From a virus (taxonomy: Duplodnaviria > Caudoviricetes): a DNA stretch of 64,000 nucleotides. The position numbers and the translations under genes were made by a program. Under the pieces are notes generated by a model. It saw nothing but the letters and a program-made list of their open reading frames with translations. It did no database searches and was not told where the DNA came from. The stretch is taken from positions 15,842 to 79,841 of the IMG/VR virus record IMGVR_UViG_2937884906_000001, one strand, 5' to 3'. Positions 38,988 to 55,592 of this stretch are shown in pieces; position 1 is the stretch's first letter, and each line of letters starts with the position of its first letter.

Positions 38988-39063
38988 AAATCACTCTTCC
39001 TATAGTATCGCGTTTGACCATCTCCCGGTTTGGGATTAGGGATTTGGTCAAGAGACGCGGAAG

Positions 39064-39092
39064 AAAGGGCGCTCTTCGGGGCGCCCTTTTTC
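39064..39092 (+). terminator. Intrinsic terminator (probably bidirectional)
   Basis: AAAGGGCGCTC-TTCG-GGGCGCCCTTTTT. Confidence 0.85.
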
Positions 39093-39427
39093 GTTCTTGC
39101 TAAGTATTAGAGTGCTATTACTTGGTTTTCCAAAAATTTTTGTAGAGTATGTGTGGGTCCATTCCCGGCGTCGAGGCAGGAAAAGCCTAGGAAAATGGTG
39201 TACTCCTTCTCTTGTTCCTGCGAACTGGTGGGTTATTCTTAGTTATCGGCAATGAGTTGTTGCTGGTGGCGGGGCTCCCCCGCGAGGTCTCCCTCGGGAG
39301 GCAAGGGCGGAGCCATGTCTGAACCGGAAGTTGCTCAATCGAGCAGCGCCAAGCCCCGAAGGGGGCGAGGACGGGGAAGGTGCGCCTGATCCACAACCTG
39401 CTCAATTGAGCAAAACGGAGAGTGAAA

Positions 39428-40060
39428 ATGGCTACGGGTTACACGCTGGCGGGCGTCGCTGGACGCATCCGCGATCTCGAGAACAAGACAAATGGCGCTT
39501 ACTACGTGGGCGTTTGCTGGCTGGCGATGTGCCGCGATAGCGGCAAGGGTGCGAAAAAGCGCCTCGCCGACAAGGTGTTCGGCGTCGACAAGGGCGCGAA
39601 GGAAACCAGCACGTTCCGCAATGCATGGCGGATTGCCGAAAAGGCCTTTTCGGAAGGCTTCCCGGCGGCGCACCGCAAGGCGGTTGTGGAGCTGGCGCTG
39701 GATGAGGCGATTGACTTCGCAGTCAAGGCGCTGGAGGCGCACAAGACCGCGCTCAAGGTCACGAACATGAAGGATTACGAGGACGTATGCAAATACGCCT
39801 CTGTCGAGACCATGCCGCCCAAGGCGGAGGCCGAACCGGACCCTGAAGCGGAGGCGAAGGCCAAAGCGGAGGCGGAGGAACAGGCCGAAGCGGAGGCGAA
39901 GGCCAAACGTGAGGCCGAACTCAACCCGGTCGACCCGCTGATCGGTCTGCGACATGCCGCCAGCGAGTTGACGCTGGAACAGGCGATCGAATTCGCCGGA
40001 TGGCTGAACGAGCACATCCAGCGGGCGATGCAGCCCACGGAAGAGAGGAAGGCGGCCTAA
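39428..40060 (+). CDS. First early-region hypothetical protein with AEAEAKAK low-complexity linker
   Basis: GGAG SD, 210 aa, typical codon use. Confidence 0.7.
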   Translation: MATGYTLAGVAGRIRDLENKTNGAYYVGVCWLAMCRDSGKGAKKRLADKVFGVDKGAKETSTFRNAWRIAEKAFSEGFPAAHRKAVVELALDEAIDFAVKALEAHKTALKVTNMKDYEDVCKYASVETMPPKAEAEPDPEAEAKAKAEAEEQAEAEAKAKREAELNPVDPLIGLRHAASELTLEQAIEFAGWLNEHIQRAMQPTEERKAA

Positions 40061-40174
40061 GCCGCCCTCCCCGGGCCGCCCCCACGGGCGGCCCACCCCC
40101 TCCTGCGTCCGCGCATAGGGTGCGCGTGGACGCTCATTTAGCGCACCCGCTACAGCCCAAAAATCGCAAGGAGA

Positions 40175-40612
40175 GTGAGAATGCGTGTCCTTCCGGACCT
40201 GTCGCAAAAACCCCGTCGCGGCCAGCGTCTGGCGCATACCGTGCTGGTGCGCGAGGACGGCTTTTCGCAGTCTCATTCCCTTGCCGACATGGTGCATCGC
40301 GTCTGGAATGGCTTCAGCCTTCCCAAGGTCGCCTGCACCGCACCCGAGCGTGAGGCGCTTGAGCGTGTCTCCGCTCGGCCGTCGCGCCAGCACCAGGCCC
40401 CCGTCCGACGCAATGCCCGCCGGCTGTACTCGCCGCAGGATCAGCGTGGGGTCGAGACCGTCTTCGTGATCATGGATCGCCAAGAGGGCCAGGTGCTGGC
40501 GCGGGTGAAGGGCGGTGCCCTTCACGCTGAAGTTGAAGCCGAGAAGCTCGCCCGATCGCAGGGGTTCGAGCTCTCCGATCTCAAAGTCATTTTCGAGGGA
40601 GAACTCTCATGA
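40175..40612 (+). CDS. Hypothetical protein
   Basis: AAGGAG SD; ATGA overlap downstream. Confidence 0.6.
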   Translation: MRMRVLPDLSQKPRRGQRLAHTVLVREDGFSQSHSLADMVHRVWNGFSLPKVACTAPEREALERVSARPSRQHQAPVRRNARRLYSPQDQRGVETVFVIMDRQEGQVLARVKGGALHAEVEAEKLARSQGFELSDLKVIFEGELS

Positions 40613-40818
40613 TCCGCATCACACTCGCCGCCAGCGGGCTGGCCGCGCTCGTCGGCTGGATGTCACCACAGCTACAGGACGGCCAGCAGCACCTCTACAC
40701 GCTGGAGGTGGACGGCAAGCAGATCTCGGCCGGCCCGAGCTGCGTGGCCGCGTGGCGCGCGGCGGACGGCGCCATCCCAGCCGGGTGGCGCGAGATCATC
40801 TGCTACCAGATCAGGTGA
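40609..40818 (+). CDS. Small exported hypothetical protein
   Basis: Hydrophobic N-terminus, two Cys. Confidence 0.55.
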   Translation: MIRITLAASGLAALVGWMSPQLQDGQQHLYTLEVDGKQISAGPSCVAAWRAADGAIPAGWREIICYQIR

Positions 40819-40828
40819 CATTTCTAGG

Positions 40829-41073
40829 CCGCTCCACGGTCGTGTGGGGGAGCGGGACGCGCCGGAAGCTCGGGAGAGCGCTTGGCTGCACTTCGGGTGC
40901 GGGAGACGGGTCAACGCGGACGGAGGGACGACGACCACATCCCGAGAGAGAGCGCCTGCGCCACATCCTAACCGAGCGGTTGGGGCTGTGTCTGCAACTT
41001 ATTGTTGTGGAATTCAGCCTCGGTTCGGGCTCTGGACGTGGCGCAGGCGGTGGCGGGGGCCAAATCAGCGCTC
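40829..41073. ncRNA. Candidate large structured non-coding RNA
   Basis: Nested inverted repeats including a perfect 12-bp stem 40953-40964/41038-41049; no credible ORF. Confidence 0.4.
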
Positions 41074-41147
41074 CACCAAGTTTTTCTGTCACGCGTCCAC
41101 ATGAGTTTTCCAGTTGTCTTTTGCAACCAGTTTCGCGGAGAAATCAG

Positions 41148-41300
41148 ATGATGCAACACCCTTACTGGACCCCGGCTAAGGTCGAACAGCGGCTCGAAGC
41201 GATCGAGAAGAACCGGCTGGAGGCCATTCGCTATCTCGATGAGGCCAGGCTTCGCCGACCGGCCGGTAGGGTGCTCGAGGCACTCGAAATCAAACATTAG
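41148..41300 (+). CDS. 50-aa hypothetical protein
   Basis: GGAG SD; helical sequence MMQHPYWTPAKVEQRLEA... Confidence 0.55.
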   Translation: MMQHPYWTPAKVEQRLEAIEKNRLEAIRYLDEARLRRPAGRVLEALEIKH

Positions 41301-41528
41301 TTTAAGAAACCGGAATAAGCTATTCTAATTGCGTGGCTTTTTCCCTATTATAAGATCTTTTATTTCTCTCCCAATTCCCCAACGCGGGGAAAATAATAAG
41401 GAGTACAGAACGATACCTAAAATCACAAAGGGGCTAAGAAAATTTGACTATAGTACATATAAAATAATGGTCTTAGGAATTGGCCCCTCACACTGTTCTC
41501 CTTATTCCGCGATACTATGTGAGCACCC

Positions 41529-41963
41529 ATGGCCAGACCGAAAACCCCTCTGAAAGACCGAGTACTCCGGCAATCCCACATTGAGGGCAACCACCTGATC
41601 TGGAACGGTCCAATGCGTGGTCGTCGCCCTGTCATGCGCCACTACGGAAACCCGGCCCGTGTGCTGCTCAATTTGGTGGATTTCCCACGGATTTCAATCC
41701 GTCCCACCTGCCTTGAGCCGCGATGCATCGAGCCCACCCACTGGCGCGTGGTGAAAGAGCGCGACTTCAAATACCTCGACCTCCCACCGGTGACATGGCG
41801 CGATCCCCGCGACACCTCGACGGCCGATTTCACCGACCAAGAGGTCGAGGAAATCCAGATGATCGTCGAGGACGGAAACGTCGACGAGGAAGAGCTTGCG
41901 AAGTGGTATCGGCCCGAAGTCGTGGCCGAGATCCTGCGCCGCGCCAGCGCCACCTCCACCTAA
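41529..41963 (+). CDS. Degenerate HNH-like protein
   Basis: HLIWNG...PTCLEPRCIEPTH resembles the phage HNH C..CVNP.H motif with catalytic positions altered. Confidence 0.5.
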   Translation: MARPKTPLKDRVLRQSHIEGNHLIWNGPMRGRRPVMRHYGNPARVLLNLVDFPRISIRPTCLEPRCIEPTHWRVVKERDFKYLDLPPVTWRDPRDTSTADFTDQEVEEIQMIVEDGNVDEEELAKWYRPEVVAEILRRASATST

Positions 41964-41991
41964 GAACCACCAAAAGCAACAGCAACAGCAA

Positions 41992-42016
41992 CGCGCCCTG
42001 AGCGCCACGGAGAAGC
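41992..42016 (+). repeat. 25-bp direct repeat, copy 1
   Basis: CGCGCCCTGAGCGCCACGGAGAAGC; 1 mismatch to 58780-58804. Confidence 0.9.
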
Positions 42017-42127
42017 ACGTCATGGCGCAAGCGGCCAACCCTTTCCGTCGCAAGAGACGACGGAACCAGTCAACCCGCTTCCTTTCGAAGCGCGAAACCG
42101 CAACTCACCCGTCCTTGGTGAAGTGAC

Positions 42128-42316
42128 ATGTCCCAGCCCCTCTATCGCATCGTCGCGACCAGACGATGCAAGACGCACAGACCAGGCACCACACTCGACT
42201 TCACCGGCCCTCGCAGCTCCCTGACCAAAGGCTGGCGTGTCGTCGGCCGATACCAGGGCAAGAACTACGTCACCAACCTGTCGGGCATGCAGTTCGACAT
42301 CGTGGAGTACCGATGA
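42128..42316 (+). CDS. Hypothetical protein
   Basis: Coupled small ORF. Confidence 0.55.
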   Translation: MSQPLYRIVATRRCKTHRPGTTLDFTGPRSSLTKGWRVVGRYQGKNYVTNLSGMQFDIVEYR

Positions 42317-42729
42317 TGCTGACCCATTCCCAAGCCCGCTCGATCGCGGAAGCCCTCTGGGGCACAGGCGGCACCCATTCCGCCCGCACCAACAGGCCCG
42401 GTGCCTTCTACTTCTCCTGTTCGGGCCACGGCGGCTTCGTGATCGACGCCCGCTGCCTTGCCCATGACGAGTATGCTCGCTTCATCAAGCACATCACCCC
42501 CGAGCAGGCCCAGGACTACGGCAAGGCGATCCAACACCCCTACCGCCGCCGCTCGTTCAAGGTCACCCAGACCCAACTCGCCAACATGCAGGAGTTCGAG
42601 TTCTTCGTGCTCGAGGAAGACTGCGATTGGTGCATCGCGCCACTCATGGCCGGCATCCGCGTTGAGGGCATGACCGACGAGGCCGCCCAATCCACGTTCG
42701 ACCACTGGCTGAAGGACAAAGCCGCATGA
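42313..42729 (+). CDS. Hypothetical phage protein
   Basis: SCSGHGGF and EEDCDW conserved-looking motifs. Confidence 0.6.
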   Translation: MMLTHSQARSIAEALWGTGGTHSARTNRPGAFYFSCSGHGGFVIDARCLAHDEYARFIKHITPEQAQDYGKAIQHPYRRRSFKVTQTQLANMQEFEFFVLEEDCDWCIAPLMAGIRVEGMTDEAAQSTFDHWLKDKAA

Positions 42730-43596: not shown

Positions 43597-43721
43597 TCGC
43601 TGAATGCGGGTCTGCAACGACCTAAACTTGTGACCCGTCCACCGCATGAGCGTGGACCGAGCCGCTCCTTCGAGAATGGAGCACCTCAAGGCCCTCGCCA
43701 CCAGCGAGGGCCTTTTTCTTT
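43597..43721 (+). ncRNA. Candidate ~125-nt sRNA or attenuator leader
   Basis: Extended -10 TGcCATAAT (43582-43590), three hairpins, terminator AAGGCCCTCGC-CACCA-GCGAGGGCCTTTTTCTTT. Confidence 0.5.
43688..43721 (+). terminator. Intrinsic terminator just upstream of the kinase genes
   Basis: 11-bp perfect stem plus T-run. Confidence 0.88.
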
Positions 43722-43738
43722 GCCCACGGAGAGCGACC

Positions 43739-44233
43739 ATGAGCAGGACCACCATCACCACGGCATCTGATCCCAACACCAAATACCACGACGTCTGTAG
43801 CCAGCTCGAATTCAGCGGTTGGGCCAAAATCAGCTGCGGAGAATATGCGTCGATCTGGGCTCACCCCGATTGCCCCGACTCCGTCTTGAAGGTCGGCCAC
43901 GACCTCAGCGACGGCTGGCTGGACTACGCCAAGTCCTGCACCAAGACCCGCTCGCCCCACGCGCCCCGTATCCACGCGATCGAGCTCTACGAGAACTTCT
44001 TCTACGCCGAGATCGAGCGCCTCGCGCCTCTCTCACCCGATCGCTACTACGAGGAAAGCCTCAGCCGGCATCCTTATCCCGAGGACGTTCCGACCCACTC
44101 GCTGGCATGCTTCCTGCGCCGTACGGAGCGCGTCCGCCGCAAGTTCACGGACCATCTCGCCGACTACCATGAGAACAACTTCATGGTCCGGCCCTCCACC
44201 AACGAAATCGTCTGCACGGACCCATGGTGCTAA
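43739..44233 (+). CDS. T7 gp0.7-like protein kinase 1
   Basis: GEYASIWAHP..VLKVG, DYHENN, TDP align to T7 kinase GHFSAAYSHP..VIKVG, DMHSGN, TDP. Confidence 0.75.
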   Translation: MSRTTITTASDPNTKYHDVCSQLEFSGWAKISCGEYASIWAHPDCPDSVLKVGHDLSDGWLDYAKSCTKTRSPHAPRIHAIELYENFFYAEIERLAPLSPDRYYEESLSRHPYPEDVPTHSLACFLRRTERVRRKFTDHLADYHENNFMVRPSTNEIVCTDPWC

Positions 44234-44234
44234 C

Positions 44235-44777
44235 ATGAGAGCCCAGATCAATCACGCCCGCCGCAACGCCTGCTTCAGCGAAGCCGCACTGCGCCAAAAG
44301 GGATACCGTCAGATCGGCCGCGGAGCCTTCTCCAAGGCGTTCGTCCATCCCGACGCCCCCGAAGTCGTCATCAAGGTCGGCAAGCTCTACAGCAAGCGCT
44401 GCGGTCTCACCGATGGCTTCCCGCACTTCGCCCAGCAACTGCTTGAGGGCGAGATCCATTCCAAGTTCTTCCCCAAGGTCTACGGGCTCGTGATCGACCC
44501 CGTCAAACAGCTCTTCTGGTGCATCATGAAGCGCTACCGGAAGGTGCGGGGCGCCAAGAAAACGGCCGAGCAGATCAGCACCACACACAAGGCCATCACC
44601 GGCTCCATCAGCGGCACCAAGCCGGTCGGCCGCTTCCGCAAGGCGATGGAACAGCTGATCGACCATCGGTTCATCTCGGACATTCACGCTGGCAACGTCC
44701 TCTGGAACGGCGCCACTCCCATCGTCATCGACCCAATCTGCATCCGGCCGCGTTACCAAACGGAGTTCTACGCATGA
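44235..44777 (+). CDS. T7 gp0.7-like protein kinase 2
   Basis: IGRGAFSKAFVHP..VVIKVG, DIHAGN, IDP. Confidence 0.82.
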   Translation: MRAQINHARRNACFSEAALRQKGYRQIGRGAFSKAFVHPDAPEVVIKVGKLYSKRCGLTDGFPHFAQQLLEGEIHSKFFPKVYGLVIDPVKQLFWCIMKRYRKVRGAKKTAEQISTTHKAITGSISGTKPVGRFRKAMEQLIDHRFISDIHAGNVLWNGATPIVIDPICIRPRYQTEFYA

Positions 44778-46010: not shown

Positions 46011-46051
46011 CCCACAAGTTTCAGGTGCATCGCTCTCCTCCTGCGGGTCCA

Positions 46052-46120
46052 CCAACCATCCACTTAACGGCAACGCATGTTGGCTCGATCTGGCACCTGG
46101 ATCGGGGCGTGGATGGTTGG
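46052..46120. other. Intergenic three-way-junction structured element
   Basis: Perfect 12-bp stem CCAACCATCCAC/GTGGATGGTTGG enclosing two hairpins. Confidence 0.7.
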
Positions 46121-46146
46121 CACCTACGCCATCATTGGAGACCATC

Positions 46147-54194: not shown

Positions 54195-55592
54195 ATGATC
54201 ACTGGCAAGACGCTGATCGACTGGGGCATCGACCCCAAAGGTAGAGGCAAGTGGTTCGGCGAAGCGATCCGCAACGCCAACATCCTCCATAGCCTCGGCC
54301 GGTCGGGGATGGAGATCCTCGCCGAGATCCGCAAGAGCGAACCCCAACTACCCCCCGAGATCCCACTCCGCACCAACTCACTGCCGTTCAACGTTTTCCT
54401 CGAGCCGGAGGACGAGATCGAGCACACCAACCTCAACCTGGTCGTCGAGGCCATGGACAAGCTGATGCGAGTGCCGACCGTCGAGAAGGCCGTCGTCATG
54501 CCCGACGCCTGCCCTGCCGGCATCATCCCGGTCGGCGGCGTGGTGGCCACCATGAATGCCATCCATCCCGGTTTCCACTCGGCCGACGTCTGCTGCTCGA
54601 TGGCGATCACCGTCTTCAAGCGCATGGAGGATCTGAAGAAGATCCTGGACGTTGCCCAGGAGGTCACTCATTTTGGCCCGGGTGGCCGTAGGGCGCTTCA
54701 CACGTCCATGGGTGCTTCCATTGGTCTGGTCGATCTTATCGACCGCATGGATGGTAACCGCTTCACGCAAGACCGCCAGTCAAAACACGGCGACATCGCC
54801 GAGACCAATCTCGGCACCCAGGGCGACGGGAACCACTTTCTGTTCGTCGGCGCGCTGCGCTCGACCGGTCAGCCCGCCATCGTGACCCATCACGGCTCCC
54901 GCGGACTCGGTGCGCTCGTCTACAAGCGAGGCTTGGCCGCGGCCAAGAAGCACACCGCGATCGTGTCGCCCAGGACCGACCCACAGGCCGCTTGGATCGA
55001 CGCCGACAGCGAGGCCGGCCAGGATTACTGGAAGGCGCTCCAGCTGGTGCGCGAGTGGACAAAGCTGAACCACTTCGTCCTCCACGACCGCATCCAGCAA
55101 CGCATTGGCAACTCCGTGGTCGATCGGTTCTGGAACGAGCATAATTTCGTGTTCCGGCGCGACGACGGCCTCTACTACCACGCCAAGGGTGCCACCCCGT
55201 CATTCGCCGGCTTCTCGGCTGACGACGACGGCCGGACCCTCATTCCTCTCAACATGGCGGAGCCGATTTTGGTCACGCGGCACGCCGACAAAGTCGAGGC
55301 GCTTGGCTTCTCACCACATGGCGCCGGCCGGAACATGAGCCGGACTGCCTACCTCCGCGACGTGATTGGAGACCGAGACGGTGCCGCTATCATGACGATG
55401 CTTCGCCGGAAGGTCGATGCCCGTTTCTATCTCGGCATCCCCGACCTGTCCGAACTGCCCGAGGCATACAAGAACGCCGAACAGGTTCAGCAGCAGATCA
55501 ACAAGCACGGCTTGGCGAAGGTGGTCGACTTCGTCGATCCCTACGGCTGCATCATGGCCGGCGAAATGCACTGGCAAAGGAAAACCAAATGA
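54195..55592 (+). CDS. rtcB: RtcB-family RNA ligase
   Basis: MPDAC, ADVCC, LGTQGDGNHF, THHGSRG, HNF, HAKGAT, PHGAGR, PEAYK. Confidence 0.92.
   Translation: MITGKTLIDWGIDPKGRGKWFGEAIRNANILHSLGRSGMEILAEIRKSEPQLPPEIPLRTNSLPFNVFLEPEDEIEHTNLNLVVEAMDKLMRVPTVEKAVVMPDACPAGIIPVGGVVATMNAIHPGFHSADVCCSMAITVFKRMEDLKKILDVAQEVTHFGPGGRRALHTSMGASIGLVDLIDRMDGNRFTQDRQSKHGDIAETNLGTQGDGNHFLFVGALRSTGQPAIVTHHGSRGLGALVYKRGLAAAKKHTAIVSPRTDPQAAWIDADSEAGQDYWKALQLVREWTKLNHFVLHDRIQQRIGNSVVDRFWNEHNFVFRRDDGLYYHAKGATPSFAGFSADDDGRTLIPLNMAEPILVTRHADKVEALGFSPHGAGRNMSRTAYLRDVIGDRDGAAIMTMLRRKVDARFYLGIPDLSELPEAYKNAEQVQQQINKHGLAKVVDFVDPYGCIMAGEMHWQRKTK

Follow-up and report, generated by a model that had tools for sequence, protein, structure and literature searches.

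The early genes of phage T7 are separated by RNase III processing hairpins, and sites of the same kind are found in lambda at sib and in the N leader; such sites have no need of invariant hexamer repeats. Intra-operon antitermination is carried out by RNAs such as put of phage HK022 and the Bacillus EAR element, the latter of which contains a pseudoknot. Small stable RNAs, termed species 1 and 2, are co-transcribed with the tRNAs of phage T4, and the CI/C4 immunity RNAs of P4, P1 and P7 are likewise processed from longer transcripts. HDV-like theta ribozymes adjoin phage tRNAs and have been postulated to process tRNA 3' trailers (PMC10879173). In phages and bacteria, comparative genomics has moreover turned up structured RNA motifs that are still orphans (Weinberg et al. 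2010, PMC2864571; Weinberg et al. 2017, PMC5737381; Fremin et al. 2023, PMC10690425), including more than 10,000 unnamed IMG/VR candidates in PMC10690425. The pseudoknotted RNA motif described here, Module A, is similar to these orphan motifs in being intergenic, covarying, pseudoknotted, equipped with conserved junctions and prophage-borne, and differs from them in that it falls into none of the 4227 families of Rfam 15 and is very rare, with six distinct sequences. Judged against Rfam 15, Module A counts as a new family of RNAs, although their general kind is known.

Module A is carried by a 79.8-kb Mesorhizobium provirus of IMG/VR, part of which is covered by the stretch of 64,000 nucleotides analysed here (the window) and whose relatives reside in Mesorhizobium and Nitratireductor genomes. 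It lies in the spacer between two small early genes, p69 and p50 (Table 1). The start of p69 overlaps the stop of a 145-aa gene (40175-40612) via ATGA, and tblastn places p69 homologues at the equivalent position in 12 related loci. The p50 product is 43-86% identical across 18 loci (tblastn), and the p50-like gene always comes immediately after the spacer or, where a DUF6197 gene is inserted, after the latter. For the 145-aa, p69 and p50 proteins, no Pfam or PHROG family was found. Using the 145-aa neighbour protein as an anchor, we gathered about 20 related loci, in which the spacer occurs in a short (193-211 nt) and a long (293-329 nt) form, the difference being the Module A block. A first-pass annotation had described about 250 nt of this spacer (40829-41073) as one densely paired candidate non-coding RNA. 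Instead of a single RNA, we find that the spacer is a mosaic of hairpin modules, with Module A and a long stem-loop domain as two separable units.

Table 1. Features of the spacer and its flanking genes (window coordinates).
Feature	Position	Strand	Description
p69, 69-aa gene	40609..40818	+	from the ORF list; upstream neighbour of the spacer
Spacer	40819-41147	+	329-nt gap between the 69-aa and 50-aa genes
Module A, pseudoknotted RNA motif	40826..40938	+	113 nt here; 100-121 nt in relatives
P1 hairpin	40829..40855	+	CCGCUCC 40829-35 / GGAGCGG 40849-55
P2/P2' helix	40856..40921	+	GACGCG+CCG 40856-64 / C.GG 40907-09 and CGC.GAC 40915-21
P3 hairpin	40868..40879	+	GCUC-GGGA-GAGC, GNRA-type tetraloop
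P4 variable hairpin	40881..40905	+	CUGCAC-UUCGG-GUGCGG, C(UUCG)G loop; 12 nt longer in the window
Conserved 3' tail	40922..40936	+	GGAGGGA 40922-28, then ACGACC 40931-36 = 3' strand of the pseudoknot
Stem-loop domain	40948..41052	+	closed by helix X:Z, CGCCUGCGCCACAUCC 40953-68 / GGACGUGGCGCAGGCG 41034-49
Terminator-like element	41049..41085	+	hairpin GGUGG...CCACC 41049-77, AAG, UUUUU 41081-85
Small hairpin and RBS	41113..41147	+	GUUGU-CUUUU-GCAAC 41113-27, then GGAG 41137-40
p50, 50-aa gene	41148..41300	+	downstream neighbour of the spacer

The non-coding character of the spacer, as annotated, is borne out by its homologues. No frame is open throughout all 14 homologous spacers, each frame having stops in most of them, the spacer lengths fall into all three modulo-3 classes, and the tblastn matches are fragmentary, in several frames and on both strands. 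An ORF of 261 aa that runs across the region is Arg/Gly-rich and reads like an out-of-frame artefact, and a coding reading was rejected, including read-through or frameshift into this open frame. The structured RNA that had been proposed is supported by compensatory changes, described below. The dense pairing also exceeds chance: the entire spacer folds at -149 kcal/mol on the + strand (z -3.8), and none of 100 shuffles, averaging -131 kcal/mol, was as good. Since the - strand likewise folds beyond its shuffles (z -4.85), we dropped folding energy alone as a basis for assigning the strand. The region matched no RNA family known to the initial annotator, and the same held for the covariance models of Rfam 15. 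At gathering scores, they returned zero matches in the whole window; at E<=10, no match overlapping the element was obtained on either strand of 40300-41600, and within 40810-40960 only two matches at chance level were seen (12.5 and 12.6 bits, E 7.7 and 9.5). The Module A copies of two other loci, L042 and L016, gave no Rfam match either. ARAGORN detected no tRNA or tmRNA in the window.

Module A combines the P1 hairpin with a three-way junction of P2, P3 and P4, and a pseudoknot links the P1 loop to the 3' tail. The seven pairs of P1, the CCGCTCC/GGAGCGG helix recognized in the original reading, are 100% paired in six sequences. In the divergent L016 copy, four of the seven differ, three through exchange of both partners and one through a change in a single strand; two of the L016 pairs are G-U, which would become unpaired A-C on the - strand. 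The apical loop of P1 carries GGUCGU (40838-43), the 5' strand of the pseudoknot. P2/P2' encloses P3, P4 and a conserved AUCAA-type bulge (GUCAA 40910-14 in the window), and two of its nine pairs show compensatory changes (U-A to C-G; G-C to A-U). The third pair of P3 appears as U-A, C-G or, as in L016, A-U, being paired in 100% of the sequences, and its loop GGGA(U) is invariant. P4 differs in length and sequence in every lineage and is longer in L016, the hairpin as such being always kept, and all three of its basal pairs exhibit compensatory changes. The GCAC-TTCGG-GTGC hairpin noticed at the outset does exist, but only as the window's own extension of this variable element. While the stems covary, the unpaired CCGGAA, GGGA and GGAGGGA do not vary at all, and the AUCAA bulge is close to invariant. 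Two covariance models of the motif, R1 and R2, score the window copy at 100.1 and 97.8 bits, respectively. The G-U pairs in P1 of L016, the GGGA loop, and the window P4 with its C(UUCG)G loop mark Module A as an RNA of the + strand.

The annotation had also suspected a pseudoknot. One is indeed present and covaries, yet it is formed by GGUCGU and ACGACC rather than by the pair proposed, GAGCGCT (40876-82) with AGCGCTC (41067-73). This crossing helix can be drawn in the window sequence, as can CTCGGGA (40869-75) with TCCCGAG (40940-46), but both are specific to the window and absent from L002, L003, L039 and L042. The two long-range helices moreover conflict with the supported fold, because they use nucleotides of the covarying P3 hairpin (GCUC-GGGA-GAGC). 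For the pseudoknot identified here, the pairing GGUCGU/ACGACC of the Mesorhizobium-phage copies is replaced by CCGCCUUC/GAAGGCGG (8 bp) in L016; the six shared columns are 100% paired and three of them covary. In this alignment the pseudoknot covaries as a whole, and its helix had been left out of R1, the model that found L016, whereas the nested helices were aligned with a model that already held them. Using RNAalifold and the curated structure, 96% pairing and four compensatory pairs were observed for five sequences, with none of 500 shuffles reaching as high. With L016 included, 97.7% of the cells pair and 12 of the 29 pairs undergo compensatory changes; again, 0/500 shuffles scored as high and slid controls yielded 0-1. 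The sample comprises only six distinct sequences, and as five of these are close relatives, most of the covariation rests on the divergent L016. Energetically, Module A alone is ordinary (z +0.7), and its support is comparative, in the form of covariation, and not thermodynamic. On the alignment, these data show that the Module A fold is real, with both fold and sequence being conserved.

The L016 copy (L016:1472-1592) was retrieved by R1 as a much diverged sequence with 43.5 bits and an E value of about 1e-8 to 1e-6. It keeps all helices as well as the junction nucleotides CCGGAAGC, GGGAU, GGGAUCAAC and GGAGGGA, in flanks unrelated to those of the other copies. The locus belongs to genome G196, where it is part of a prophage unrelated to the window phage, and the same sequence is also recorded as an IMG/VR provirus. 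In this prophage, helicase, DnaB, ParB and methyltransferase genes precede the motif and terminase, portal and major head genes follow it. The motif ends 7 nt before a tRNA-Ser(GCU), with a tRNA-Thr next, the tRNAs lying beside and not inside it. Of note, the cluster at L016:1409-2020 (= L051:10532-11143, G196) reads intrinsic terminator, small hairpin, Module A, tRNA-Ser(GCU), 256-nt gap and tRNA-Thr(UGU), and is placed between the replication and the packaging genes. The diverged copy bears directly on the trivial explanation that the spacer has no specific function and merely reflects fortuitous pairing in G+C-rich DNA, kept by recent ancestry and shuffled by recombination. G+C-rich sequence does fold strongly by chance, as the shuffles of the spacer illustrate, Module A alone is no better than its shuffles and the family is tiny. 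However, 12 of 29 compensatory pairs as opposed to 0-1 in slid controls and 0/500 in shuffles, the preservation of all helices and junction nucleotides in an unrelated prophage with unrelated flanks, and the z of -6.9 of the neighbouring stem-loop all speak against it. The absence of any function is already disfavoured, and we regard it as extremely improbable.

With respect to its distribution, Module A is present in the window, L002, L003, L039/L040 and L042-44, representing five related Mesorhizobium-phage lineages, and absent from nine related spacers (L004, L006/L011, L020-L025 and L038). The flanks of L002 and L020 are about 99% identical, and at the position of the 107-nt block of L002, L020 has 18 unrelated bases. 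By sequence comparison, Module A is thus a presence/absence cassette among relatives. The Mesorhizobium-phage copies are 79-91% identical to each other; the upstream flanks share 59-69% identity in most pairs (83% for the window and L002), the downstream flanks 43-66%, and the 145-aa proteins of L042 and the window are only 52% identical. In the L042 lineage, Module A precedes a DUF6197 gene. The motif always lies in sense orientation at a unit boundary, either between two genes, between a gene and the DUF6197 gene or between a terminator and tRNA-Ser, and the downstream gene is not constant.

Module A is also rare. The provirus harbours a single copy, and blastn detected the motif in 3 of 202 Mesorhizobium genomes and in one real match among 401 genomes of the family; every genomic match falls either at the homologous prophage site or within the G196 prophage. 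This low copy number, in few genomes and at homologous sites, led us to reject a dispersed repeat of the REP, RIME or MITE type. R1 and R2 uncovered no further Module A in 151 genomes of the genus and 151 of the family, a pattern of the junction nucleotides was found in 0/401 genomes of the order, and in IMG/VR the pattern returned the known records plus only L052, which is the G196 prophage. There was no blastn match among GenBank phages and PLSDB plasmids. Additional IMG/VR records sharing exact 17-mers or 19-mers (L035-L037, L045-L050) were discarded as unrelated, the word being common by chance. The Module A family is rare, with its six distinct sequences coming from two phage lineages.

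Downstream of Module A, the stem-loop domain folds at -63.5 kcal/mol (z -6.9, 0/200 shuffles). The perfect 12-bp helix CGCCTGCGCCAC/GTGGCGCAGGCG reported in the first reading is present and conserved and turned out to be part of a 16-nt arm pair, X:Z, with 94% complementarity. The further observations of that reading, namely AACCGAG/CTCGGTT, the TCTGCAAC-TTATT-GTTGTGGA hairpin and the duplicated GAGAGCGC and CCACATCC, could all be located in the sequence. Inside, the domain is paired nearly throughout, with the UCUGCAAC-UUAUU-GUUGUGGA hairpin (40991-41011) as its cap. In the minimum-energy fold, helices of 12, 3, 6, 8 and 8 bp are stacked with small internal loops, which provides the geometry of an RNase III substrate, i.e. 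about two turns or more of near-continuous double-stranded RNA. In each of the 11 other relatives that were folded (of 14 spacers), the minimum-energy structure is again this X:Z-closed domain, with z values from -1.5 to -9.0. Nine X:Z pairs are identical in 14/14 sequences, X and Z being complementary hexamer repeats, (GCGCCN)n and (NGGCGC)n, whose copy number varies among the phages. Because X:Z is invariant, its pairing is without covariation support, and the sequence could be conserved for another reason. In the alignment, then, the closing helix of the stem-loop and its sequence blocks show conservation. Like the T7 and lambda RNase III sites, the domain is a long, nearly perfect intergenic stem-loop in an early polycistronic unit, but differs from them in having a basal helix of sequence-invariant hexamer repeats. 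A similar intergenic element was noted at 46047-46125, between a stop codon at about 46010 and a start at about 46148, with a 12-bp stem CCAACCATCCAC/GTGGATGGTTGG around the hairpins GCAACGCATGTTG and CGATC...GATCG.

The 3' part of the spacer contains two smaller elements. A terminator-like block, GGCG.GGGCCAAAUCAG.GCUCC.CCAAG followed by U3-5, is conserved in all 14 spacers, and the U run starts 2-4 nt past the stem. L021 has a strong form of the hairpin (-18.7 kcal/mol, z -3.3), the window a weak one (-11.8 kcal/mol, z 0.2). In a fixed register, 77% of the cells pair and the covariation is no better than in shuffles, and a consensus terminator scan did not flag 41049-41085. The GCAAC hairpin ahead of the ribosome-binding site was confirmed as conserved; it is found at the same place in relatives in at least four unrelated sequence versions. 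Several loci are rearranged around these blocks. In L028:3242-3571, L029:3242-3577 and L042:3331-3660, the X block and the p50-like gene are separated by an inserted DUF6197 gene, whose first 60-70 nt contain a copy of GGCGCAGGCGC. In L007:577-1190 and L027:570-1000, unrelated sequence of about 430-600 nt takes the place of p69 and of the spacer's 5' part, L027 retaining the 3' conserved blocks of the spacer and the p50 gene.

The position of Module A ahead of a terminator-like site invites comparison with put and EAR, which are likewise conserved structured RNAs between operon genes. Module A could accordingly be pictured as a sensor, that is, an aptamer of the riboswitch type or a site bound by RNA polymerase or by a protein of phage or host, that would control read-through of the terminator-like hairpin and hence p50 expression, with the X:Z helix and its alternative local partners as expression platform. 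Pockets that bind ligands or proteins typically combine strictly conserved unpaired nucleotides in junctions and loops with variable stems and a pseudoknot, and in the window lineage the motif is indeed upstream of a hairpin and U run. In several relatives, block X furthermore has a choice of partners, a local one or the distal Z block, and in the alignment Z overlaps the 5' arm of the terminator-like hairpin. Nevertheless, we consider a sensor doubtful. The downstream element differs by lineage (p50 spacer, DUF6197 gene, tRNA-Ser), so no single gene would be regulated throughout; the same spacer and p50 occur without Module A in nine relatives; in G196 the motif follows a terminator instead of preceding it; and the terminator-like hairpin, weak in the window, shows no covariation. 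With regard to riboswitches, Module A offers the conserved aptamer-like unpaired nucleotides, whereas a consistent association with the 5' UTRs of functionally related genes is not seen. It also differs from put and EAR in giving no sequence or model match to them.

All genes flanking the spacer are encoded on the + strand, as is Module A, and the tRNAs beside the L016 copy share its strand. Lying on the sense strand of their neighbours, Module A and the stem-loop are presumably co-transcribed with them. A scan of the + strand from 39000 to 42500 revealed no sigma-70-like promoter, a result that is weakly consistent with co-transcription of the spacer with the early genes. Downstream of the primase-helicase gene, a strong intrinsic terminator is found at 39062-39091 (13-bp stem, UUCG loop, T run), and the genes at 39422-41300 therefore probably constitute a transcription unit of their own. 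Two copies of a near-perfect palindrome, TGCTCAATCGAGCA and TGCTCAATTGAGCA, closely precede the unit's first gene (start 39422) at 39331-39413, 67 nt apart, and look like twin operators rather than one RNA helix. On its other side, p50 is followed by an AT-rich segment (41300-41530, 36-47% G+C compared to about 62%), conserved in part among relatives, with the hairpin CCCCAACGCGGGG and a sigma-70-like promoter match on the - strand (41374-41347).

These surroundings raise the question of whether the element might act as DNA, either as a replication origin or single-strand initiation site for the Prim-Pol/D5-type primase-helicase or as protein-binding inverted repeats. The gene of this enzyme ends 2.1 kb upstream of the spacer, X and Z are invariant inverted hexamer repeats, the - strand folds well too (z -4.85), and the sequence at 41300-41500 is AT-rich (36% G+C). 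Yet only a + strand RNA would account for the G-U pairs of the covarying helices and for the GNRA and UUCG loops, Module A is dispensable between near-identical phages and is also found in a prophage whose DnaB-type replication module is unrelated, and no iterons were found. We thus judge a DNA site to be very unlikely.

Another option is that Module A is excised from the early transcript and works in trans as a small stable RNA, be it a regulator, decoy or cofactor. The cassette is self-contained with sharp conservation boundaries, its compact pseudoknotted fold would favour stability, and in G196 the 3' end of the motif is 7 nt from the 5' end of a tRNA, such that RNase P cleavage would release Module A. 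The motif is similar to T4 species 1 and 2 and to CI/C4 in being a phage RNA of the about 70-140 nt class within a longer predicted transcript and, as concerns the T4 species, in adjoining tRNA genes in one lineage. It lacks homology to any of them, however, Rfam C4 and all other sRNA families remain without a match, the scan of 39000-42500 found neither a promoter nor a terminator belonging to the motif itself, and no complementary target was identified. A trans-acting RNA is, in our view, not a likely outcome.

The explanation we tentatively favour, without giving it even chances, is that Module A and the stem-loop are cis-acting processing or boundary elements of the early transcript, a processing role that we infer from position only. 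This preference is founded on the unit-boundary position of Module A in three contexts, with a tRNA precursor adjoining it in one of them, on its nature as a dispensable cassette and on the neighbouring stem-loop with the geometry of an RNase III substrate. In such a scheme, the spacer would be transcribed together with the early genes of the + strand and act as RNA through two independent modules. Module A would fold on its own, with P1 tied to the 3' tail by a 6-8-bp pseudoknot that spans the three-way junction, and could define or protect an RNA end, either by self-cleavage or as a structure against which nucleases or RNase P work. The long stem-loop may serve as an RNase III-type cleavage site or as an attenuation site, uncoupling the upstream mRNA from the p50 mRNA. 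Both modules would then act in cis on the same early transcript.

A link from the motif to a nuclease or to catalysis was not seen. Involvement of an RtcB RNA ligase was considered and rejected: RtcB is encoded by the window phage and by the L004 phage, which is without Module A, and is absent from the L002, L003 and G196 phages, all of which carry the motif. The window gene itself is at 54195-55592 (Pfam PF01139, E 1e-36). Two further ORFs of the window, at 43646-44777, have no Pfam family at E<=0.001, and the L041 gene at the corresponding place bears a weak PF27024 (Phage_T7_kinase) mark. As to known self-cleaving ribozymes (HDV-like, hammerhead, twister, pistol, hatchet), there was no Rfam match at E<=10, and by eye Module A displays neither a CUGANGA...GAAA core nor a P3/L3/P1.1 arrangement. 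With the theta ribozymes, Module A shares that it is a small pseudoknotted phage RNA, of which one copy is directly beside a tRNA gene, and by this analogy a theta-like role in tRNA precursor processing is conceivable. It differs in being upstream of the tRNA, in matching no HDV-type model and in a strand order without the P3/L3/P1.1 core. A derivation of Module A from a tRNA, with P3 resembling a D-arm and the AUCAA bulge a T-loop by eye, is speculation.

That Module A represents a new class of catalytic or sensing RNA in temperate phages is a possibility to which we assign little weight. If it does, the motif would be a self-cleaving ribozyme trimming early transcripts and tRNA precursors, or an aptamer for an unidentified signal, and its pseudoknot-clamped junction with CCGGAA, GGGA, AUCAA and GGAGGGA would form the active site or binding pocket. 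The rarity of the family, with six sequences in two prophage lineages of Rhizobiales-type hosts, limits its general importance unless more members are found. New pseudoknotted RNA classes with invariant junctions are often ribozymes, riboswitches or protein-recruiting RNAs, and phages are an under-explored source of them. For the present family, nature has supplied its own controls, namely near-identical phages with and without the cassette and a diverged copy that swaps its helices while keeping the junction nucleotides. More generally, dense pairing in a spacer need not mean one RNA: as this locus illustrates, it can come from several independent modules in a mosaic.
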